Below are positions 4,071 through 20,306 of a stretch of DNA of 64,000 nt, piece after piece. How positions within the stretch are numbered: the stretch's first letter is position 1; every line of letters starts with the position of its first letter. The notes below the pieces were generated by a model. The model ran no database searches and was not told where the DNA came from. It saw nothing but the letters and a program-made list of their open reading frames with translations. Source of the stretch: Porticoccaceae bacterium (GTDB lineage: Bacteria > Pseudomonadota > Gammaproteobacteria > Pseudomonadales > Porticoccaceae); NCBI GenBank assembly GCA_036961295.1, contig JBALVX010000001.1, forward strand, positions 25,114-89,113. Direction: 5' to 3'. Position numbers and translations under genes: made by a program.

Positions 4071-4105
4071 GTTGAAGGGGTGTTGTATGCTTTTTAGGAT
4101 ATTGT

Positions 4106-4273
4106 ATGAATGCCGCACAATCTCTTGACGACTTGCGTTCCCCTCCTGGAAACAGGCTCGAACCATTAAAAGGTGAGCTCAAGGGTTTTCACAGCATTCG
4201 TATTAATTCCCAGTGGCGCATTATTTTCCGCTGGGCCGAAGGTGGTGCCACCAATGTCCAGATCGTGGACTAA
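4106..4273 (+). pseudogene. higB: HigB-type (COG3549 killer) toxin remnant, N-terminally truncated with premature TAA
   Basis: 55-codon ORF NAAQSLDDLRSPPGNRLEPLKGELKGFHSIRINSQWRIIFRWAEGGATNVQIVD* matches only the C-terminal ~60% of about 92-aa HigB toxins. The frame opens 6 codons after the BVMO stop. It ends GAC TAA CAC TAA where the family ends VDYH. Confidence 0.7.
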
Positions 4274-4295
4274 CACTAAAATTTAGAGGTGTCAT

Positions 4296-4586
4296 ATGAT
4301 TCCCTGCAATAGAACTGCAACGCATCCAGGGGTCATTTTGCTCAAAGAGTTTCTTGAGCCACTGGATTTAACGCAAAAGGCTTTGGCGGCACACGTCGGT
4401 GTTCCTGTGCAGCGAGTTAATGAAATTGTTCGCGGTAAACGCGGCTTTACGCCGGAAACTGCATGGCTGCTTTCCGAGGCGCTGCGTACAACTCCAGAGT
4501 TTTGGCTCAATCTTCAATCCATACATGATTTGTCGGCCAATCGTCCCGATAATCACATTGAGCTATTGATCGCAGCGGGCATGTAG
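4296..4586 (+). CDS. higA: HigA-family antitoxin (XRE HTH)
   Basis: 96 aa. HPGVILLKEFLEPLDLTQKALAAHVGVPVQRVNEIVRGKRGFTPETAWLLSEAL is a typical HigA HTH. Starts 22 nt after the higB remnant. Confidence 0.85.
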   Translation: MIPCNRTATHPGVILLKEFLEPLDLTQKALAAHVGVPVQRVNEIVRGKRGFTPETAWLLSEALRTTPEFWLNLQSIHDLSANRPDNHIELLIAAGM

Positions 4587-12260: not shown

Positions 12261-12358
12261 ATGACTATGGTTAAATGACTATGGTTAAATGACTATGGTT
12301 AAATGATTGTGGTTAAATAACTCTCGTTAAATAACTCTCGTTAAATGATTATGATTAA
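12261..12358. repeat. tandem repeat, 7 x 14 bp, abutting the tRNA-Leu gene
   Basis: Units are 3x atgactatggttaa, atgattgtggttaa, 2x ataactctcgttaa and atgattatgattaa, then a partial atgtatgtat running into tRNA nt 1 (12369). Confidence 0.9.
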
Positions 12359-12368
12359 ATGTATGTAT

Positions 12369-12453
12369 GCCCAAGTGGTGGAATTGGTAGACACGCTATC
12401 TTGAGGGGGTAGTGGCGCAAGCCGTGCCGGTTCAAGTCCGGCTTTGGGCACCA
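12369..12453 (+). tRNA. tRNA-Leu (anticodon GAG)
   Basis: GCCCAAG...CTTGGGCACCA acceptor, anticodon loop TTGAGGG, long variable arm, TTCAAGT T-loop, encoded CCA. Position after secG matches E. coli leuU. Confidence 0.95.
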
Positions 12454-12482
12454 TGTTAAAGACCAGCACCCTCTGCTGGCGA
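12440..12482. repeat. attL: 43-bp direct repeat (last 14 nt of tRNA-Leu plus 29 nt downstream)
   Basis: ggctttgggcaccatgttaaagaccagcaccctctgctggcga is identical to 19281-19323. Confidence 0.9.
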
Positions 12483-12489
12483 CTAAGAA

Positions 12490-12515
12490 GCTCCGCAATG
12501 CGGGGCTTTTTTTTT
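12490..12515 (+). terminator. rho-independent terminator (island-borne) after tRNA-Leu
   Basis: gctccgc aat gcggggc followed by a 9-T run. Confidence 0.75.
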
Positions 12516-12564
12516 ACTTTTTAGTCTGGCTACGTCCTCTACTATCCATTGCTATCTGCCCTTA

Positions 12565-12617
12565 TTGGGGGGTATATTGGGGGTACAAATTGATATGATG
12601 ATAAAAAATACCCCCAA
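12565..12617. promoter_or_regulatory. putative integrase arm-type sites (TTGGGGGTA x2 direct, x1 inverted)
   Basis: ttggggggta (12565-74), ttgggggta (12577-85) and inverted tacccccaa (12609-17) overlapping the int ATG. The same motif recurs at 19197-19217. Confidence 0.5.
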
Positions 12618-13843
12618 TGGCCACCAATAAACTAACCATTCCAGCCGTAAAGAATGCCAAGCCGAGCGAGAAGCAATGGAAGCTGAGCGATGGTGGTGGT
12701 CTCTATCTTTTGATTCAGCCTAAGGGTGGTAAGTACTGGCGTTTGAAATATCGCTATCAGGGCAAAGAAAAGGTTTTAGCGCTTGGGGTATACCCTGAGA
12801 CCACACTTGCTTTGGCGAGAGAAGGTAGGGATAGAGCTAGAGTTTTGTTAGGGAATGGCACTGATCCCAGCCTTGTGCGGAAACAGCGAAAGCGCGCTGG
12901 TAGGATCAATTCTGAAAATACCTTTGAAGCATTGGCTCTCGACTGGATCGAACAGCAGCGGGGCAGATGGTCAATAGGCCATACCGAACGTGTTATCCAG
13001 TCACTCGAAAGTGATGTTTTCCCCCATATCGGATATCGCGCAATTTCTGAACTGACACCTCCCGACATACTGGAAGTTGTTCGCAAAGTTGAAAGCCGTG
13101 ATGCTCTGGATGTAGCGGGGCGCATTTTACAGCGCTGCGGTGCGATCTTTCGCTATGCCGTGCAAACGGGTAGGGCGCAGACGAACCCCGCCTCAGAGCT
13201 AAAGGGGGTGCTAAAAACCCGCAAAGTTGAGCACAGGGCCGCTATTACCCGCGCCGAGCTTCCACAGTTACTTAGAGACGTAGCGACCTATGAAGGCTAT
13301 CTGATTACGCGCCTTGCGCTCAAGTTGCTGATACTTACCTTTGTACGCCCTGGTGAGCTTCGCTTTGCCCGATGGGATGAATTCGACCTTGAAGCGCGCG
13401 TATGGCGTATTCCCGGTGAGCGCATGAAAATGAAGACCGAACACTTAGTACCCTTGTCGCGGCAAGCCATCGATTTATTGGAACAATTGAAACCGATCAC
13501 TGGGCATTATGATTTATTGTTTTCAGGTGAGCGCGGTCAGCTCAAACCCATATCCGAAAACACCATGACCTATGCCCTGTACCGCATGGGCTACAAGAGT
13601 CGGGCCACCGCCCATGGTTTCAGAACCACCGCGTCGTCTATTCTTAATGAAGAAGGCTTCAACCCAGATGCTATCGAACGGCAGCTCTCCCATCTTGAGC
13701 GCAATCAGGTGAGGGGCGCTTACACAAAGCATGCGGAGTACCTGAAAGACCGAACTAGGATGATGCAATGGTGGGCTGACTATTTGGATCAACTGGAGAC
13801 CGGCTCTAATGTGGTGCCGGGCAAGTTTGGGGCAAGTAACTAA
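12617..13843 (+). CDS. int: tyrosine-type site-specific integrase (P4-like, DUF4102 arm-binding N-terminus)
   Basis: 408 aa. LSDGGGLYLLIQPKGGKYWRLKYRYQGKEKVLALGVYP N-domain. Catalytic RPGELR...HGFRTTASS...GAY. Confidence 0.95.
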   Translation: MATNKLTIPAVKNAKPSEKQWKLSDGGGLYLLIQPKGGKYWRLKYRYQGKEKVLALGVYPETTLALAREGRDRARVLLGNGTDPSLVRKQRKRAGRINSENTFEALALDWIEQQRGRWSIGHTERVIQSLESDVFPHIGYRAISELTPPDILEVVRKVESRDALDVAGRILQRCGAIFRYAVQTGRAQTNPASELKGVLKTRKVEHRAAITRAELPQLLRDVATYEGYLITRLALKLLILTFVRPGELRFARWDEFDLEARVWRIPGERMKMKTEHLVPLSRQAIDLLEQLKPITGHYDLLFSGERGQLKPISENTMTYALYRMGYKSRATAHGFRTTASSILNEEGFNPDAIERQLSHLERNQVRGAYTKHAEYLKDRTRMMQWWADYLDQLETGSNVVPGKFGASN

Positions 13844-13942
13844 AGGGGGTTGAATAACCCAGCCTAGCCCGACGGGGCGAACCGGGCAGCTACCCACTGC
13901 CCTTGGCTTGGTTTTTATTCTTGGGTCGCACGGGGGTGTGAG

Positions 13943-14716
13943 GTGAATAATGATGATAGTGGTGAGCGCGATGATGTTTTTATTTTCATACGGAAGCCAA
14001 AGAATAGTAGGTCAGAGCAAACTTTCGATACTAAGCAAGACCTGGCCGACTTCCTGTCAAATGAAAACCTATTCGTCTCATTTGACGAACTTGTTGAAGA
14101 ACACGGCTTGGCGTTGTCAATACAGCTGACGAGTGCGGTTTGTCAATTTAATGAAGACGGCGACGTACTCTCAGCGATCGACGTGATGACCCTTTGCAAA
14201 GTAATGGATTTATACCCGCCAACGGGCGTCATGAATTGGGTATCCCAAGCTTTCTGGGACTTTATGAAGGATGATTCTCAGGCAGAAACGGGTCGGATCG
14301 ATCAAGGAAAGCAATACACAGGTGATATGAATAAACTTCTGGGGATCACGGGCCCAGGCAAACCAATCAATAGCGCTCGAAGAAAGCACAGAAATAAATA
14401 CCTTTACGTCATCATGGGGAATGTGATCCGTGTTTTCGGCGTCAGCGCACACGCTGCGGCAAAGCTGATTTATCAAAGAGAAATGTTTATCGGCACTTGG
14501 CGCTCTTGTGTGGGACTCCCCGATCCATCCTCAATTGAAAGAGCTTACAGCCAATTAAACCCCAAGCCGCACGAAGAGGGTCTATCGCTTGGTTATCGCT
14601 ACCCAGAGAGCCGAGAACACCTGAAAGAGTTTGCGGAGTCCTTTGATGTTCCTGATGCTGATCGTACGGTTATTCAGGCGCTTATGCAGAAAGTTGATTT
14701 ACTTTTTCCGGAATAG
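13943..14716 (+). CDS. hypothetical protein (island)
   Basis: 257-aa ORF with a GTG start. No motif recognised. The first in-frame ATG is about 80 codons in. Confidence 0.45.
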   Translation: MNNDDSGERDDVFIFIRKPKNSRSEQTFDTKQDLADFLSNENLFVSFDELVEEHGLALSIQLTSAVCQFNEDGDVLSAIDVMTLCKVMDLYPPTGVMNWVSQAFWDFMKDDSQAETGRIDQGKQYTGDMNKLLGITGPGKPINSARRKHRNKYLYVIMGNVIRVFGVSAHAAAKLIYQREMFIGTWRSCVGLPDPSSIERAYSQLNPKPHEEGLSLGYRYPESREHLKEFAESFDVPDADRTVIQALMQKVDLLFPE

Positions 14717-14803
14717 AACCAAGGCCTCCTCTTGATTCGATGGAGTCCAGTTTAGGGCTGTCAGATGATTGCTGTTGTCAACTATCGCCAAAGGAGGCAA
14801 AGC

Positions 14804-15058
14804 ATGACTAACAGCAACCGTTCCCCCACTCCCAATACCATACCTTCAAATGACCGAATCTTACGCTGGCCAGAAGTTCATCAGCGTGTAGGTATTTGTC
14901 GCTCTCATGCTCACCAGTTAGTAGCGCAAGGTGAATTCCCCGAGCCAATTAAATTAGGGCCACGTGCCTCTGGTTGGCTCGAATCGGAAATAAATGAATG
15001 GCTCGTACGACGTGTGGCCGAATCTCGCACCGATCAGCTACGCAAAGCGGGGAGCTAA
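14804..15058 (+). CDS. alpA: AlpA-family transcriptional regulator / excisionase-like HTH
   Basis: AGGAGG RBS. ILRWPEVHQRVGICRSHAHQLVAQGEFPEPIKLGPRASGWLESEINEWL is the AlpA signature. Confidence 0.85.
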   Translation: MTNSNRSPTPNTIPSNDRILRWPEVHQRVGICRSHAHQLVAQGEFPEPIKLGPRASGWLESEINEWLVRRVAESRTDQLRKAGS

Positions 15059-15061
15059 ATC

Positions 15062-15526
15062 ATGAAGACACAAAAAAGCCCGGTGACAGCCGGGCAATTC
15101 CGTAACAAATCAACCAATATGCTCAGCAGCAACCAGTTGAATCAGAGTGATTGTAGCTTAAGGATTGGCGGGGGTGGTAGTCCTAGGCCTCGTAGGAGGG
15201 AAACTAAATACGAGCGATCTTGTATCTTGATGATTTCCACCCCAGGGGGTGTGACTGAAAACGATATATTGCGAGCGTGTCGCTTATCTAGTGGGCGTAA
15301 TTACCCGAATAAACTGGAGAAGGAAGCTGGGATTATTATGGGGCGCGCACGTGAACTAAATCCTGACGGCATAGGCTCACATTTCCGTTACAGGATTCGT
15401 TCTGCAAATGACGCACAGCAGGCGATTAAGGTAGTCAACAAACTGAGCATAAGGCGCGGCGCTGGGCCGCTTACCGATGAGCAGGTGAGACGTTTACTGG
15501 CTTTATATAATACCGACGACGAATGA
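15062..15526 (+). CDS. hypothetical protein (island)
   Basis: 154 aa. Starts 3 nt after the alpA stop, with a GGGGAG RBS. No motif recognised. Confidence 0.5.
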   Translation: MKTQKSPVTAGQFRNKSTNMLSSNQLNQSDCSLRIGGGGSPRPRRRETKYERSCILMISTPGGVTENDILRACRLSSGRNYPNKLEKEAGIIMGRARELNPDGIGSHFRYRIRSANDAQQAIKVVNKLSIRRGAGPLTDEQVRRLLALYNTDDE

Positions 15527-15527
15527 A

Positions 15528-15917
15528 ATGGGCGCGGTAAAGAAGTCCAAGAGCCCGCGCTTTATAGGAATCCCACAGCACGTTGCTCATAGCGAAGAGT
15601 TTGCTGCCTTAAAGGGCAATGAAGTAAAACTGTTGATTGATTTGTTAGTGCAATACTATGGCCGGAACAACGGGAAGCTTTCGCCTACTTTAGCTTTGAT
15701 GAAAAAACGGGGGTGGGCTTCTTCATCACTCTACCGGGCTCACACTGGACTTTTAAAAAAAGGCTTTGTCGTAGTAACTCGCCAGGGTTGGAAACAGCGA
15801 GGTCGCCCCACGCTGGTAGCAATCACCTGGAATAGGATTGATGAATGTGACATTGACTATGACGAAGGTATTAGATCCAGCGCAACACCACTTAATAGTT
15901 GGCGCAAGAAACAATGA
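15528..15917 (+). CDS. putative winged-helix DNA-binding protein (possible Rep/regulator of the island)
   Basis: 129 aa. Starts 1 nt after the previous stop. FIGIPQHVAHSEEFAALKGNEVKLLIDLLVQYYGRNNGKLSP...LLKKGFVVVTRQG resembles wHTH proteins of small mobile elements. Confidence 0.45.
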   Translation: MGAVKKSKSPRFIGIPQHVAHSEEFAALKGNEVKLLIDLLVQYYGRNNGKLSPTLALMKKRGWASSSLYRAHTGLLKKGFVVVTRQGWKQRGRPTLVAITWNRIDECDIDYDEGIRSSATPLNSWRKKQ

Positions 15918-15992
15918 ATCCGCATATTTGGGTTGCGAGAAATTTAACGGATCAACCTCTCCTGCATGGCATAGGTTAAGGTCTACCCACGC

Positions 15993-16088
15993 CCATATAG
16001 GAGTGGGTCGCCACAAACTGGAGCTGACCTATGCCATATAGGAGTAGTAACTAGGGGTTTTGGTGAGTGTGTCTATTCCATATAGGAG
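15993..16088 (+). repeat. iteron-like direct repeats, 3 x CCATATAGGAG
   Basis: Exact 11-mers at 15993-16003, 16034-16044 and 16078-16088 (41- and 44-bp spacing), in a convergent intergenic region. Confidence 0.8.
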
Positions 16089-16146
16089 AGTCTTATATAC
16101 AACCATACCCTCTAGAAAAACCGTTGCTGAAAGATTAGTGATAAAT

Positions 16147-16515
16147 CTACGGATCGGAGTTTAGCGCAGCGGCAATAATTGTCTCATTACTGATGCCAGG
16201 AGGCGCAGAGACGTAAAGGCTTATCTCAGCTATCCACCGGAATCCAAGGTGAGCAATGGCGCGTTCATTGGCGGGGGTGAACCGTTCCCCGCCGTCGGGC
16301 TTGATGGTGTTCAGTTGCTGCGGCGCGTGTCCAGGCCTGTAGTCTTGTAGGTAAATTACGTTGCTCATGGTGCGTTGCTCCTGCGGTGTTTCGGTAAAGG
16401 CTTTGCGGAGGCGCGTTTGTAGGGCTTCTGGCCAGCTATCGAGGCTGACTGTCATTGTATCGCGCAGCTTTATGAGGTGGCGACTACCGGTAGGTGTGGG
16501 CGCTAGAATGGGCAA
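16147..16515 (-). CDS. hypothetical protein (island), start uncertain
   Basis: 122-aa ORF from TTG 16515. ATG 16455 is an alternative. ATG 16368 is the only candidate with a good AGGAG RBS (giving 73 aa). Confidence 0.4.
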   Translation of the reverse strand: MPILAPTPTGSRHLIKLRDTMTVSLDSWPEALQTRLRKAFTETPQEQRTMSNVIYLQDYRPGHAPQQLNTIKPDGGERFTPANERAIAHLGFRWIAEISLYVSAPPGISNETIIAAALNSDP

Positions 16516-16629
16516 CTCAAGGTACTACCTTGGCCCATATCCGCACCGGGGGGAGCGCTGAGCGCGGTAAGAGAGAAACTTTTCAGGGCTGACAGCGACA
16601 CCACCTCTTTTTTTGAAGGTGCGTTATAT

Positions 16630-16643
16630 CCTATTAATATAGG
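16630..16643. promoter_or_regulatory. inverted repeat CCTAT-TAAT-ATAGG sharing the iteron core
   Basis: Both arms contain the ATAGG core of the CCATATAGGAG iterons. It lies in the divergent region between 16515 and 16910. Confidence 0.35.
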
Positions 16644-16831
16644 GGTGAAGTGCTTGTCGTTTAAATGGTCAGGTGTCGGTTTTTGCTGTTTTGACCGTGA
16701 AATTGCTGAGCGGTCTGAGTTAGGGGGTAAATGCTCCTGTTATTCACAATAGGCAGACCAAAGTCCAACCATGTGGAGCTGGCCTCTACCTCAATGTTAC
16801 TGATACTCCTGGGAACGTTGCTGGCCCACGA

Positions 16832-16885
16832 GTGTCAGATATAGTGTCAGATATTGTTGACAGTCTGATTGTGGGGAGTTAATCT
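16832..16885 (+). promoter_or_regulatory. candidate sigma70 promoter with an upstream direct-repeat operator for the 3-gene operon
   Basis: GTGTCAGATAT at 16832-42 and 16844-54. -35 TTGACA at 16857-62, 17-nt spacer, -10 TAATCT at 16880-85, 24 nt before ATG 16910. Confidence 0.45.
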
Positions 16886-16909
16886 CCTTTGTGAAAAGGG
16901 AATATAAAT

Positions 16910-17776
16910 ATGACGCGACGATTAAAAATCGCACCACTGATCTTCGTTCAGGTGGAAATGACATGGTCACCACTTCCAGACCCAAATGTACTTAATGTAG
17001 ACGAGCTTACTCAATTTCATCGCGCTCTGCAGAAGCTGGGGTTTTCTCAGAAGCAGGAATTAGAGTTCACTTGGCAGGAGCTATCTTTATCCGGTGCTGA
17101 TAGCGCCCTAAAATCTAGGAGCCAAATCAGACATATTTTTTCGAACCCGGAAAGGGACTGTCAAGTAGAGATAACCAGAGAGAAAGTATCCATAAAGCAA
17201 AGCCGGTATGCAGGGTTTGAAGCATTGTTTACTTTGGCTAAGGACGTGATTTCGTTATTGGAGGCTGTCGAGGATATTCGCAATACTGGAGTTGGTGTTG
17301 TATCAATTCATTATGTTGATTTATTTATACCTAGCAAAGGGCGTCAACTTGAGGAATATGTTAGCTCGCAGTTGATTCCTTTCTCTCCAGCACTAAGCAA
17401 TATTCTAGCGAAACAGAGAACCGCATCTTCAGTTATACTCTTGGAAAAGAGTGACGCTAAGATACGGGATATAGCTGTTAGGCTAAATATCTATCAAGCA
17501 GATGGGGGCAAGATGCCAATCTTTGTCCCCGTTGAGCTGCAAGAGCAGCAGCAGGAAGCTGCTATGCGTTTATTTCTACCTGAAATTGATTTTGATGAAA
17601 ATGTTGAATATGGCCTGATGGATATTAGGCATGCTAGTAAATTTGTGAAACAAGAAAAATTTGGTGATGTTAACAAAGGCGAGGAGCTTAGATCGCTATA
17701 CCAAATAGCAAGTAATGTTTTTTGGGATATATTATCTGAACCAGCGAAGGAGGAGTGGGGTTATTCCGATGAATAA
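16910..17776 (+). CDS. uncharacterised protein, possibly TIGR04255-like (cargo gene A)
   Basis: 288 aa. N-terminal APLIFVQVEMTW and central VVSIHYVDLF recall the TIGR04255 pattern (from memory, unverified). No TM segment or catalytic motif seen. Confidence 0.6.
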   Translation: MTRRLKIAPLIFVQVEMTWSPLPDPNVLNVDELTQFHRALQKLGFSQKQELEFTWQELSLSGADSALKSRSQIRHIFSNPERDCQVEITREKVSIKQSRYAGFEALFTLAKDVISLLEAVEDIRNTGVGVVSIHYVDLFIPSKGRQLEEYVSSQLIPFSPALSNILAKQRTASSVILLEKSDAKIRDIAVRLNIYQADGGKMPIFVPVELQEQQQEAAMRLFLPEIDFDENVEYGLMDIRHASKFVKQEKFGDVNKGEELRSLYQIASNVFWDILSEPAKEEWGYSDE

Positions 17777-18374
17777 TGGAGCGTCAACGGCAACAAGAAG
17801 TCTTGAGTCTCACACAAGGTTAGTGTTGTTGCCTGTGCATAAAACTACGGTCGCTAAGGACGTAAGCTGGCCCTCGCGTCCAGAAAGCGACGACGGCTAC
17901 GGCTTTAAGTTAGTTGTCCTCGGCTTTTCTGCAAACCCTACAAATGGGGTTGTGGGCATTAGCCCACAACAATTAGAAGACGAGAATGTATGCGATAGAG
18001 TCATTGAATTAGATCGCTCTTTAAATCTGCCTAGAAAGTTACTGGCGGAAGCTCTCCAAATATCGAGGACAACGCTATACGATCTTCTTAACGGGGCTAA
18101 TCGAGAGTATAGAAATGAGGCTAGACTGAATAAGATGGAGTACGCAGCATCAATTATTCGCAAATCAACTGATTACCCAATTGGACGTAGTGCGATTGCG
18201 GTAAAGATTGATGGCAGTTCGTTGTCCGACGTATTGAAAGCAGATGATATTAGCTCTTCGGCTGTTGAGCAATTCGCAGTAGCAATTAACGCTATTAAAG
18301 AGAGAGAACGACTTGCCGAAGAGGATATATCGTCCAAAAATGAGCAGTATGCTCAAACGCAATTCACGGGATAG
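17769..18374 (+). CDS. HTH-containing protein (cargo gene B)
   Basis: ATG overlaps the gene A stop by 8 nt (GATGAATAA). AAGGAGGAG lies upstream. XRE-like HTH LPRKLLAEALQISRTTLYDLLNG mid-protein. Confidence 0.6.
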   Translation: MNNGASTATRSLESHTRLVLLPVHKTTVAKDVSWPSRPESDDGYGFKLVVLGFSANPTNGVVGISPQQLEDENVCDRVIELDRSLNLPRKLLAEALQISRTTLYDLLNGANREYRNEARLNKMEYAASIIRKSTDYPIGRSAIAVKIDGSSLSDVLKADDISSSAVEQFAVAINAIKERERLAEEDISSKNEQYAQTQFTG

Positions 18375-18379
18375 CATGC

Positions 18380-19189
18380 ATGAGTGCAGAAGTAGAATGG
18401 ACTCAGGGCAGCTACTTCAAATTTAGTCACCTATCTGAAGAAACTAAAGCTCAATTTAAAGAAGGTATCCCAGGGCAAGGCAGAATTCGGGGAACTTCCT
18501 TAATTGTAGTAATCTCACAAGATTGTGATATTCAGGCTTCGAGCGGCGTCGAGTTTTATGTTCAGCTGATGGTGGCAGAGCGGGTGAATTCTACCCCTCC
18601 GTTAAATTATCACGCTAGATCATCGCGTTTTCTTGCGCTTGACATAGGCGGGGCCATATTCAAGCTCAAAGCCTTAAAGATTTGCTTCTTTCCGAAAGAG
18701 GCTTTTTTCGAGTGCAAAGAATCTTCTCAAAATAGGGGCGAGTTTGATTTTGAGCAAAAGGAATTGCTGAGACGTTGGTTAGCACAACGCTATAACAGAG
18801 CCGCTTTACCAGACAGCTTTAACAGACGAATTTCGGGTGTAATAGATCTGTTGCCAAATCAAAAGGTGGATTTGTACTTAAGATTAGATAGTGAAGTCGA
18901 GAATGAAGACTGCTACGCCGTAGCGATTATTGCGGTCCCATACAAGGGAGCAAATATTGATGCTAAGGGGCAAGTAGAATTGTTCAAAGATATGGAGTTG
19001 CTAGAGATTGCCATAAACAATCAAGGGGGGTTAACTTTTGATAGAGACTGGTTAGACGAAAAGTATTACACATTGGTTATGACCCGCTCTGATACGCCGC
19101 TAGAGGTGTTGGACGAATTTAAAAGATGGAATTTAGACTATATATCCTACAAAGATGATGATTATGGAGTCGGACAAAATGAAGACTAG
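18380..19189 (+). CDS. uncharacterised protein (cargo gene C)
   Basis: 269 aa. Starts 5 nt after the gene B stop. LIVVISQDCDI motif and acidic C-terminus. No family recognised. Confidence 0.6.
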   Translation: MSAEVEWTQGSYFKFSHLSEETKAQFKEGIPGQGRIRGTSLIVVISQDCDIQASSGVEFYVQLMVAERVNSTPPLNYHARSSRFLALDIGGAIFKLKALKICFFPKEAFFECKESSQNRGEFDFEQKELLRRWLAQRYNRAALPDSFNRRISGVIDLLPNQKVDLYLRLDSEVENEDCYAVAIIAVPYKGANIDAKGQVELFKDMELLEIAINNQGGLTFDRDWLDEKYYTLVMTRSDTPLEVLDEFKRWNLDYISYKDDDYGVGQNED

Positions 19190-19196
19190 ATATATT

Positions 19197-19217
19197 TTGG
19201 GGGTATTTATGGGGGTA
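19197..19217. promoter_or_regulatory. putative integrase arm-type sites (attR side)
   Basis: ttgggggta (19197-205) and atgggggta (19209-17), the same motif and orientation as at 12565-12585. Confidence 0.5.
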
Positions 19218-19280
19218 TATCCGATTGAGCAGTTTTTGAAATCTAACTGTGGTACGCGTTGCGGGTTGTGATGTGGGTGT

Positions 19281-19323
19281 GGCTTTGGGCACCATGTTAA
19301 AGACCAGCACCCTCTGCTGGCGA
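19281..19323. repeat. attR: 43-bp direct repeat (displaced tRNA-Leu 3' end)
   Basis: Identical to 12440-12482. Flanking bases differ on both sides. Confidence 0.9.
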
Positions 19324-19330
19324 TAAAAAA

Positions 19331-19352
19331 CCCGCGTAGCAGCGGGTTTTTT
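19331..19352 (+). terminator. rho-independent terminator (original tRNA-Leu terminator)
   Basis: cccgc gtagca gcggg followed by ttttttg. Confidence 0.7.
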
Positions 19353-19474
19353 GTGTCTGAACGATAAGTGTGAGCTTGTAACTGTGCGCTTTTTTATATT
19401 GACATCGAAGGGGGCTGGGGAGTATTTTCGGTAAACAAAGGATTTAAAAGTACAAATCAAAAAAGGAGATTTCG

Positions 19475-19930
19475 ATGAAACTCAAACCCTTGCTCACTAT
19501 GCACGCTGACCTTAAGCCGCCCGTCGACGTCGGTCCCGGTCCCTACGGCAACCGCATGATTTTTGATGTCATCGGTGGCACTTTCACCGGCGATAAACTG
19601 CGCGGTACTTTGCTGCCCAGTGGCGGCGACTGGATATTAATTGACGAGCGGGGCGTCGGTAAGCTCGATGTGAGAATTACTCTCCAGACCGAGGATGGCG
19701 CGCTACTCTACGTGCAATATCACGGCGTGCTGGCCATGAACGAAGCCGTTAACGTAGCGGTGGGCGGTGGTGAACCCATGGACTTTGGCGATACCTACTT
19801 TATGACGCAGCCGCGCGTGGAAACCGGGGATGAGCGCTACCGTTGGCTCAACGATATTGTCGCGGTCGCCGAAGGTCGGGTAGTCGATCACGCGGTTGAA
19901 TATAAGGTGTACGAGTTGGTTAATGATTAA
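19475..19930 (+). CDS. DUF3237 (UPF0311) family protein
   Basis: 151 aa. GPGPYGNRMIFDVIGGTFTGDKLRGTLLPSGGDWILIDERGVGKLDVR. Confidence 0.7.
   Translation: MKLKPLLTMHADLKPPVDVGPGPYGNRMIFDVIGGTFTGDKLRGTLLPSGGDWILIDERGVGKLDVRITLQTEDGALLYVQYHGVLAMNEAVNVAVGGGEPMDFGDTYFMTQPRVETGDERYRWLNDIVAVAEGRVVDHAVEYKVYELVND

Positions 19931-20229: not shown

Positions 20230-20306
<77 letters not shown>

Follow-up and report, generated by a model that had tools for sequence, protein, structure and literature searches.

Among genomic islands, those that sit at tRNA genes and carry a P4-type integrase together with an AlpA regulator are the most frequent. Minimal satellites (phage-inducible chromosomal minimalist islands, PICMI, and virion-encapsidated integrative mobile elements, VEIME) and integrase-only defence islands are also known from earlier work. 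The integrase-only class is exemplified by tmRNA islands of the I23/I44/I55 type, which are transduced by a jumbo phage, and by the 'phage defence elements' cited alongside them (PMC12595487). In the phage-inducible chromosomal island (PICI)-like elements (PLE) of Vibrio cholerae the RepA protein lacks activity both as a helicase and as a primase; its binding sites are semi-palindromic repeats located in non-coding DNA, it supports replication only with the helper phage ICP1, and it counts 4PTA, 4PT7 and 2V79 among its structural neighbours (PMC7145576). Here we describe an element found in a 64-kb stretch of contig JBALVX010000001.1 from a Porticoccaceae bacterium (the whole of this stretch, 64,000 nucleotides, is referred to as the window). 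It is an intact-looking integrative element that was recently inserted at the 3' end of a tRNA-Leu(GAG) gene; as a tRNA island it is ordinary, and its value lies in being a clean, apparently intact example of an alpA-orf4 backbone in which a 129-amino-acid (aa) predicted winged-helix protein stands in place of a primase.

The island, 6,841 bp in size between repeats, is bounded by two forward-strand copies of a 43-bp sequence (GGCTTTGGGCACCATGTTAAAGACCAGCACCCTCTGCTGGCGA), attL at 12440..12482, which contains the hairpin CCAGCA-N5-TGCTGG, and attR at 19281..19323. A first-pass annotation of this DNA had proposed a perfect direct repeat at these positions, consisting of the last 14 nt of tRNA-Leu and 29 nt beyond it, with flanks that diverge at once and a terminator behind each copy, and all of this stands: exactly two, perfectly matching copies of the 43-mer occur in the window, the sequences outside them are unrelated, and both terminators fold as strong hairpins followed by T-runs. 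No further copy with up to three mismatches was found in the window, and 0 of 100 shuffles matched. The integration target, tRNA-Leu(GAG) (12369..12453, + strand; ARAGORN and Rfam tRNA), remains intact after the insertion. On the left it is preceded by glmM-tpiA-secG, so that secG and tRNA-Leu are the immediate neighbours, and on the right follow a DUF3237 gene, tRNA-fMet (tRNA-Met(CAT), 20230-20306; ARAGORN) and rimP-nusA, which bears out the placing of the island between secG-tRNA-Leu and tRNA-fMet-rimP-nusA.

An empty counterpart of this site could be located. A search of 185,579 species representatives for the 34-nt stretch formed by CACCA and the 29 nt that follow (the last five tRNA nucleotides plus 29 downstream) gave one other genome, a related Porticoccaceae metagenome-assembled genome (MAG; L001), which has it in a single copy. 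L001 is 93% identical to the window up to the repeat and 97% identical from 20003 onward; in it a single 43-mer follows tRNA-Leu and is itself followed directly by the terminator of the attR side, which is the empty attB that the first-pass annotation had proposed to look for in relatives. Since the 43-mer of L001 runs straight into the attR-side terminator, the hairpin at ~19324..19353 (+; -17.1 kcal/mol, T-run) is the original chromosomal terminator of tRNA-Leu, and that at 12485..12511 (+; -16.5 kcal/mol, z -5.6, T-run), absent in L001, is island DNA that now ends tRNA-Leu transcription. Six of the island's open reading frames (ORFs) are present in a collection of 15 billion proteins, each as a singleton at 90% identity, and together with the empty site in L001 this points to recent acquisition. 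The identity block shared with a sister island at the same site (L082, below) amounts to only ~19-20 nt with one indel; in view of the unusual length of the block in the window, 29 bases of which are lineage-specific, the attP of the island appears to be matched to this host lineage. The possibility that the 43-mer is a dispersed repeat, which the earlier annotation had raised against its own proposal, was rejected, as the window has two copies and the one other genome in which the sequence occurs has a single copy.

Integrase and regulator are readily recognised, as had been claimed. The integrase, a P4-type tyrosine recombinase of 408 aa (12617..13843, +), matches the Pfam families Arm-DNA-bind_3 (PF13356), Phage_int_M (PF22022) and Phage_integrase (PF00589), all above cut-off, as well as phrog_1, and aligns with PRK09692 over 400 of 413 positions (E 6e-85); alpA (14765..15058, +) encodes an AlpA-family excisionase/activator (PF05930, E 3e-17; phrog_2790). 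Directly after int, between it and alpA, lies an int-alpA RNA motif (Rfam RF02996; 13857..13925, +) that ends in a U-run, covers model positions 1-71 of 71 and scores 41.1 bits against a gathering score of 35.8. This motif, like the orf5 repeat block described below, had been overlooked previously, and none was found at the gathering threshold in the sister islands scanned. Among the closest relatives of the integrase are contigs that had been binned into MAGs of Flavobacteriales (79% identity), Verrucomicrobiaceae (63%), Planctomycetota and Rickettsiales (L002, L004, L046, L052 and others); either island contigs are often mis-binned or the host range of this integrase clade is very wide.

The ends of the island carry copies of a GGGGGTA motif. 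Two direct copies, TTGGGGGGTA and TTGGGGGTA, lie in the int-proximal arm (12565..12585, +), an inverted copy that reads TACCCCCAA on the + strand abuts the int ATG (12609..12617, -), and a further direct pair, TTGGGGGTA and ATGGGGGTA, lies in the attR-proximal arm (19197..19217, +; Tandem Repeats Finder (TRF) output being among the evidence). WTGGGGGTA has six exact matches in the window against 0.9 expected, four of which lie at 12577, at 12609 (on the minus strand, its end coinciding with the A of the start codon of int), at 19197 and at 19209, all just inside an end of the island; the motif set reported earlier thus holds for these four copies, but the first left-end copy (12565-12574, TTGGGGGGTA) has six G and is inexact. 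A sigma-70-like promoter candidate for int, TTGCTA-18-TATATT (12549..12578, +), identified by consensus match only, places its -10 box between the direct motif copies. In phage P4, arm-type repeats flank the core, and Int and Vis repress int. The int-proximal layout, two or three direct GGGGGTA copies and an inverted TACCCCC touching the int ATG, is kept in L082, L002 and L003, whose integrases are 75%, 79% and 68% identical to that of the island and whose cargo differs, L003 being located at a different tRNA-Leu (anticodon CAG). This conservation and the promoter overlap lend weight to the int side of the earlier suggestion of arm-type sites and int autoregulation. As no tRNA-end repeat lies within 10 kb in L002 or L003, their attR and distal arm motifs are not comparable. 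It was also noted that int has no Shine-Dalgarno sequence (12585-12619) and that the C-rich TACCCCC abuts the ATG in all four related islands (compared at ~5160-5204 in L082 and ~8950-9000 in L002 and L003), so an occupied TACCCCC site may block the initiation of int translation itself.

The remainder of the backbone is best understood from sister islands. Around the homologues of ORF5 a layout recurs in which int comes first and is separated from alpA by a variable gene, alpA is followed by a small gene and then by the ORF5 homologue, and a non-coding block leads over to variable cargo. It is found in L082 (L082-L084), at the same secG-tRNA-Leu...tRNA-fMet site, where int, orf2, alpA, orf4 and orf5 are 75, 50, 51, 56 and 72% identical to those of the island, the comparable genes are full length and the backbone gene lengths equal those of their counterparts; tmRNA in Neptuniibacter (L085) and a tRNA-Met (L087) are further sites with this layout. 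The variable gene between int and alpA, orf2 (13943..14716, +; 257 aa), evolves fast, has no family hit and has 12 relatives among 1.84 billion representatives; its slot is that of iolg in PICMI and of a DUF6387 gene in L085. The conserved gene after alpA, orf4 (15062..15526, +; 154 aa), has at least 468 homologues, whose alignment contains the invariant motif TENDILxxCRLSSGRNY...NPDGIGSHxRYR, a putative helix-turn-helix (HTH).

The neighbours of these homologues place orf4 in a known context. Among 90 ORF4-bearing loci examined, a primase of the Toprim/DUF927 (P4 alpha-like) type lies 1.2-5.4 kb downstream of orf4 in 80, and one of the D5/DUF5906 type lies downstream in 10; the usual slot of the ORF4 family is between alpA and the primase of P4/PICI-like elements. 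Most are 12-25-kb IMG/VR proviruses from Enterobacterales, with Pseudoalteromonas and others in addition, and one (L148) also encodes a protease-capsid fusion as in capsid-forming PICIs. By contrast, neither type of primase occurs in any of 60 ORF5-bearing loci or in the window. We therefore consider that the island has probably kept the alpA-ORF4 early module and that ORF5 and its repeats have been swapped in for the primase. The description of the island as made of orphan genes does not survive these counts: with at least 468 relatives for orf4, at least 55 for orf5 and 12 for orf2, and with orf7-orf9 syntenic in 13 of 14 genome loci, its genes are, on sequence comparison, without annotation and not without relatives.

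orf5 (15528..15917, +) encodes the 129-aa winged-helix protein, a putative origin-binding initiator, and is followed by a non-coding block that contains two elements. Four repeats, the putative ORF5 sites, occupy 15959..16088 (+): CCATATAGGAG occurs exactly at 15993, 16034 and 16078, and an inverted copy with two mismatches at 15959; the three exact 11-mers fall within 96 nt and none occurs elsewhere in the 64 kb. At the boundary between backbone and cargo lies the 22-mer GAGAGTCTTATATACAACCATA (16086..16107, +). The repeats are conserved in L082, L085 and L087, and in the four islands found through their proteins the 22-mer is the same, GAGAGTCTTATATA(C/T)AACCATA, with a single C/T position. 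An exact search for the 22-mer yielded six more genome loci (L095-L100) and 29 metagenome contigs (L228-L256), in which its invariance is by construction, as the loci were found by exact search; in most of them an ORF5 homologue ends ~100-190 nt upstream. More than 40 marine loci contain the orf5/repeat module, and their integrases, att sites and hosts differ. Similarity at the DNA level extends ~190 nt past the orf5 stop even between islands whose integrases are 42-45% identical, the block being the most conserved DNA of the element, and the 22-mer, which is conserved above any protein of the island family, serves as an exact DNA probe for this family in metagenomes.

The repeat word itself varies by lineage and tracks the predicted recognition helix and wing of ORF5. 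Proteins with SSLYRA / RQGWKQRGRPT are paired with the word CCATAT(A/T)GGAG, those with STTLYKA / K(P/Q)GKKIRGDCT (L233-type) with CTCATATATCGAG, and L097 represents a third type; because word, helix and wing co-vary, the comparison suggests that ORF5 binds the repeats. The AlphaFold (AF2) model of ORF5 is a winged helix (predicted local distance difference test, pLDDT, 78; predicted template-modelling score, pTM, 0.73), and its top Foldseek matches are the N-terminal domains of staphylococcal RepA_N proteins (4pt7/4pql/5kbj; E 4e-3, template-modelling (TM) score 0.43), with DnaD (2v79) lower. An ORF5 homologue of 39% identity in PP003913.1, a 16-kb integrase-bearing sequence, is annotated as 'replication protein O' and adjoins a primase gene. 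Reading the 22-mer as a simple promoter is weakened, since the gene that follows it may be on either strand (4 of the 10 islands examined have it on the opposite strand), and reading the repeat/22-mer region as a phage cos or pac site, or as a plasmid ori or oriT, found no support in IMG/VR, INPHARED or PLSDB (72,556 plasmids), the last of which gave no match. A 184-aa ORF with the look of a small tyrosine recombinase (HSMRKT...RY) separates orf5 from the repeat block, along with other inserted genes, in L233 (4741-5295) and L237 (893-1447). L238 (381-935), in which no orf5 homologue was detected, has this ORF upstream of the block, accompanied by a GNAT/TacA-like pair; a second insertion point inside the backbone is suggested by this placement.

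Beyond the block lies the cargo, for which a cassette of three genes whose reading frames overlap or abut can be recognised. The first, orf7 (16910..17776, +; 288 aa), belongs to the TIGR04255 family (NCBIfam, 69 bits against a cut-off of 30, E 5.5e-19), for which the paper collection searched gave no paper. The second, orf8 (17766..18374, +; ~202 aa from its likely start, the longest ORF beginning at 17715), has weak Xre-type HTH matches (HTH_3 and HTH_31, below the Pfam cut-offs) and homologues in L101, L102, L257 and L258, that of L101 weakly matching an Xre-like antitoxin HTH. The third, orf9 (18380..19189, +; 269 aa), contains the invariant motifs SQDCDI, WxxxRYxRAALPDxFN and LDYIS, and the N-terminal half of its model, and this half only, is predicted to adopt a MazF/CcdB-like fold (Foldseek probability 0.96-0.99, TM 0.5-0.62 by target length), no sequence family being matched. 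The statement that seven ORFs of the island lack recognisable function was accordingly too strong, given that one belongs to TIGR04255 and another (16147-16515, below) is a doubtful gene. Just upstream of orf7 is a perfect 12-nt tandem repeat, AGTGTCAGATAT in two copies (16831..16854, +; TRF), and the stretch 16831-16861 is 90% identical to one upstream of the orf7 homologue in L257; the repeat could be an operator.

The cassette recurs elsewhere. ORF9 has ~10 relatives by a word-indexed search, and every readable neighbourhood shows the same three-gene arrangement; a genome scan gave 14 cassette loci in several phyla, 13 of them with the upstream partner genes, in hosts that include Porticoccus, Ketobacter, Marinobacter, Colwellia, Alteromonas, Ectothiorhodospira, Thermoanaerobaculia and Balneolaceae. 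In L101 the cassette (identities 46/43/40%) is part of an element with a Prim-Pol gene, in L102-L104 (26/29/27%) it neighbours TacAT and genes for an nSTAND3-Mrr and an FRG-domain protein, and in a further locus it adjoins genes for an integrase and a methylase as well as an IS21-type element. L257 and L258 have an alpA homologue upstream of the cassette, and L258 has an int homologue as well. We conclude that orf7-orf9 probably form a mobile cassette of the toxin-antitoxin or defence type. In other members of the island family the cargo slot is taken by type I restriction-modification, Fic or large NTPase genes, as in L087, where Pfam lists type I restriction-modification and Fic next to the 22-mer, which fits the slot being a hotspot for defence cargo. 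HsdR, read by eye, or a 1,344-aa NTPase-like ORF was also seen in this slot in L233, L237, L253, L254 and L238.

In agreement with the earlier statement that the island has no capsid, conjugation or primase genes, Pfam, PHROGs and NCBIfam returned none of these domains, and tblastn of the window with D5/DUF5906 and Toprim/DUF927 satellite primases and a capsid protein gave chance matches only. Nor was any terminase or relaxase gene found in the island, any relaxase or coupling-protein domain in Pfam- and NCBIfam-level scans, or any Pfam or PHROG match to P4- or PICI-type genes other than int and alpA; PDB sequence searches with ORF4, ORF7 and ORF9 gave nothing significant.

Taken together, the reading that we favour, and hold to be somewhat better than evenly balanced, is that of an intact P4-integrase/AlpA island with satellite-like replication, transfer by a helper and defence cargo. 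Recombination by Int between attP and attB would take place within the 43-bp block and would rely on the GGGGGTA repeats of both arms as sites for the N-terminal arm-binding domain of Int; Int may repress its own gene, because the repeats overlap the int promoter and start codon, whilst AlpA would act both as excision factor and as activator. The alpA-orf4 pair would represent the early module of P4/PICI-type phage satellites, with ORF5 replacing the primase-helicase; by binding the four repeats beside the AT-rich 22-mer, ORF5 could create a minimal origin that borrows helicase, primase and polymerase. As the island has no packaging or transfer genes, the excised circle would most likely be spread by a helper phage, inside its particles, in the manner of the minimalist PICMI satellites, and the cargo (a TIGR04255 protein, an HTH regulator or antitoxin and an effector of MazF/CcdB fold) might pay for carriage of the island by acting as a toxin-antitoxin or abortive-infection defence. 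Of the two kinds of presumed hitch-hiking envisaged in the first-pass annotation, as a satellite-like element or as an integrative and mobilisable element (IME), the former is made more likely by the kinship of the backbone with P4/PICI-like satellites.

Several observations weigh against this reading. Excision, circular forms, replication, packaging and helper dependence are steps that we infer by analogy, and no helper phage for the island was identified. The attR-side GGGGGTA pair, the part of the arm-site proposal that gained no comparative support, is not conserved in L082, the only sister island with a readable right end. The likeness of ORF5 to RepA_N is weak, generic MarR/CodY winged helices ranking close behind; Pfam gave no RepA_N (PF06970) match in ORF5 at E <= 0.1, the best RepA entry in a search of the ORF5 profile against the PDB (4pql, E 0.86) was non-significant, and the co-variation of repeat word and ORF5 rests on perhaps two or three independent lineages. 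The 22-mer has no exact match in IMG/VR, the repeat/22-mer region gave chance matches only against INPHARED phages, and none of the 29 metagenome contigs with the 22-mer has terminal repeats, hence no circular or concatemeric member was seen. Finally, the ORF9 model is of moderate confidence (pLDDT 67; Foldseek E 0.02-0.1), and PADLOC-DB 2.0 returned only chance-level Cas12 matches for the cassette proteins of the window, L101 and L102.

A more far-reaching proposal, which we put forward only tentatively, is that the island stands for a widespread and so far undescribed family of minimal phage satellites that lack a primase and have marine gammaproteobacteria as hosts. Its backbone would comprise int and alpA, each followed by a variable gene (a small one in the case of alpA), then the ORF5 initiator, its cognate repeats and the invariant 22-mer, the last being a cis site recognised by helper or host (candidates are an origin-unwinding, pac or nic site); replication and packaging would be borrowed entirely from the helper, and the defence cargo, including the unnamed three-gene system, would be exchangeable. 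The same non-coding block would have a simpler role if ORF4 and ORF5 were merely transcription factors and the repeats with the 22-mer an operator/promoter for the cargo or for an immunity switch, in which case the island would not replicate but would move by chance, through generalised transduction or transformation, and then be inserted by Int. The fold of ORF5 is equally compatible with MarR, CodY and ArsR-type regulators, the 22-mer has a -10-like core (TATATA/TATAAC), and the block lies exactly at the boundary of backbone and cargo. We nevertheless regard this as rather unlikely: a promoter needs no 22 invariant bases and should not precede a gene that lies, in nearly half of the islands examined, on the opposite strand, and ORF5 stands where related elements encode a primase, its homologue annotated as replication protein O adjoining a primase gene.

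The absence of that primase may also be read as loss, the island being the stranded remnant of a decayed P4/PICI-like satellite that has shed primase and packaging functions and become an immobile, domesticated defence island, at most able to excise. Such decay would explain why a gene whose relatives nearly always accompany a primase is here found without one, why neither the exact IMG/VR search nor the 29 metagenome contigs produced circular or virome copies, and why the proteins of the island are singletons among 15 billion; yet the flanking repeats are perfect, the backbone genes have the lengths of those in L082, where the same primase-less int-orf2-alpA-orf4-orf5 layout recurs, the insertion is recent enough for a close relative to lack it, and the recurrence of layout and module, with a non-coding block better conserved than the proteins, indicates a selected design and not random decay. 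This makes a remnant distinctly improbable in our view. A transfer route other than phage particles would be open to an IME in which the repeats and 22-mer form an oriT, ORF4 and ORF5 are relaxosome accessory proteins, and relaxase and mating pore are supplied in trans. Mobilisable islands that mimic the oriT of a helper do exist, for example the mobilisable genomic islands (MGIs) of SXT/R391, and an invariant 22-mer beside variable protein-binding repeats would be expected of a nic site constrained by a trans-acting relaxase in an island without transfer genes of its own. However, none of the PLSDB plasmids matches the region, the domain scans found no relaxase or coupling protein, the relatives of ORF4 reside in satellite-type elements with primase or capsid genes and those of ORF5 in prophage-like contigs, and AlpA-led early operons are characteristic of satellites (PMC10803314), so that we judge an IME to be very improbable.

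Some further features of the island and its surroundings complete the description. orf6 (16147..16515, -; 122 aa) has no family hit, its exact sequence is not in the protein collection and tblastn found no relative in 227 loci; with no homologue anywhere, it is unsupported as a real gene. Downstream lies a conserved 76-nt non-coding element (16544..16617, +), ~80% identical to 9986-10061 of L082 and partially matched in L257 (5587-5628), the cargo of the three islands that share it being partly different; its fold is no better than that of shuffled sequences, and Rfam recognised no known RNA in it or in the repeat block. Outside the island, a 14-bp tandem repeat (ATGACTATGGTTAA) occupies 12261-12361 between the secG stop and tRNA-Leu in 7.2 copies, against 3.1 copies in L001 (3811-3853), and this difference in copy number marks it as a variable minisatellite upstream of tRNA-Leu. 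Between attB and tRNA-fMet both genomes have a single gene, which in the window encodes a DUF3237 protein (19475-19930, E 4e-48) and in L001 a secreted DUF4124 protein (4104-4583), the ~150 nt upstream, with the ribosome-binding region, being common to both (88%); the gap between tRNA-Leu and tRNA-fMet is, as far as this sequence comparison goes, a second, integrase-independent variable spot. A weak match to the gammaproteobacterial rimP leader (RF01770; 20320-20396, 27.5 bits against a gathering score of 47) was seen in the expected place after tRNA-fMet.

If the orf5/repeat module is indeed an origin, it would lower the known minimum gene set of a replicating satellite, and the borrowing of a helper replisome in the style of PLE would extend beyond Vibrio cholerae. 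The cassette orf7-orf9, for its part, is carried by mobile elements and has known defence genes for neighbours in several phyla; since no PADLOC-DB 2.0 model matches it, it offers a testable candidate for a defence or toxin-antitoxin system.

Of the described systems, PICMI of the Vibrionaceae (PMC10803314) resemble the island in size (~6 kb), in the order int, small gene, alpA, small gene, replication gene and cargo, in having no capsid-remodelling or packaging genes, in their marine gammaproteobacterial hosts and in cargo with a defence role. They differ in being defined by a DUF3987/DUF5906 primase, which neither Pfam nor tblastn found in the island, and in integrating next to fis and not in tRNA-Leu; moreover, PICMI are induced by a virulent helper phage and packaged in it as concatemers, and for the island neither a helper nor a concatemeric contig was found. 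P4-like satellites, Gram-negative PICIs and capsid-forming PICIs have in common with it a P4-family arm-binding integrase at the 3' end of tRNA-Leu, an AlpA/Vis-type regulator and, in ~90 such elements, an ORF4-family gene between alpA and the primase. In contrast to these, the island has no alpha- or D5-type primase-helicase, no psu, sid, delta or epsilon, no terS, ppi or rpp and no capsid genes, and is about half their size or less, the layout shared with PICIs and capsid-forming PICIs being restricted to int, alpA and ORF4.

In the case of the PLE of Vibrio cholerae the likeness is confined to the style of the replication module: PLE have a small RepA_N-like winged-helix initiator and repeats, of which ORF5 and its putative sites would be the counterparts, and the fold matches of ORF5 include 4PT7 and 2V79 from among the RepA neighbours. 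PLE, however, use a large serine recombinase where the island has a tyrosine recombinase, are ~18 kb in size and encode a RepA with an extra C-terminal domain, whilst ORF5 has no Pfam RepA_N match and a weak structural one. The integrase-only tRNA and tmRNA defence islands likewise combine a tyrosine integrase and AlpA with direct repeats, variable defence cargo and no autonomous transfer genes, but are larger (their orf numbering runs to ~20-40), have other core genes (YqaJ, RadC and an inovirus Gp2-like gene) and no reported orf5/repeat/22-mer module. The int-alpA RNA stands in its canonical place and, matched over its full length, shows no apparent difference from the Rfam family. A member of no named satellite family, the island belongs to the tRNA islands with a P4-type integrase and AlpA.

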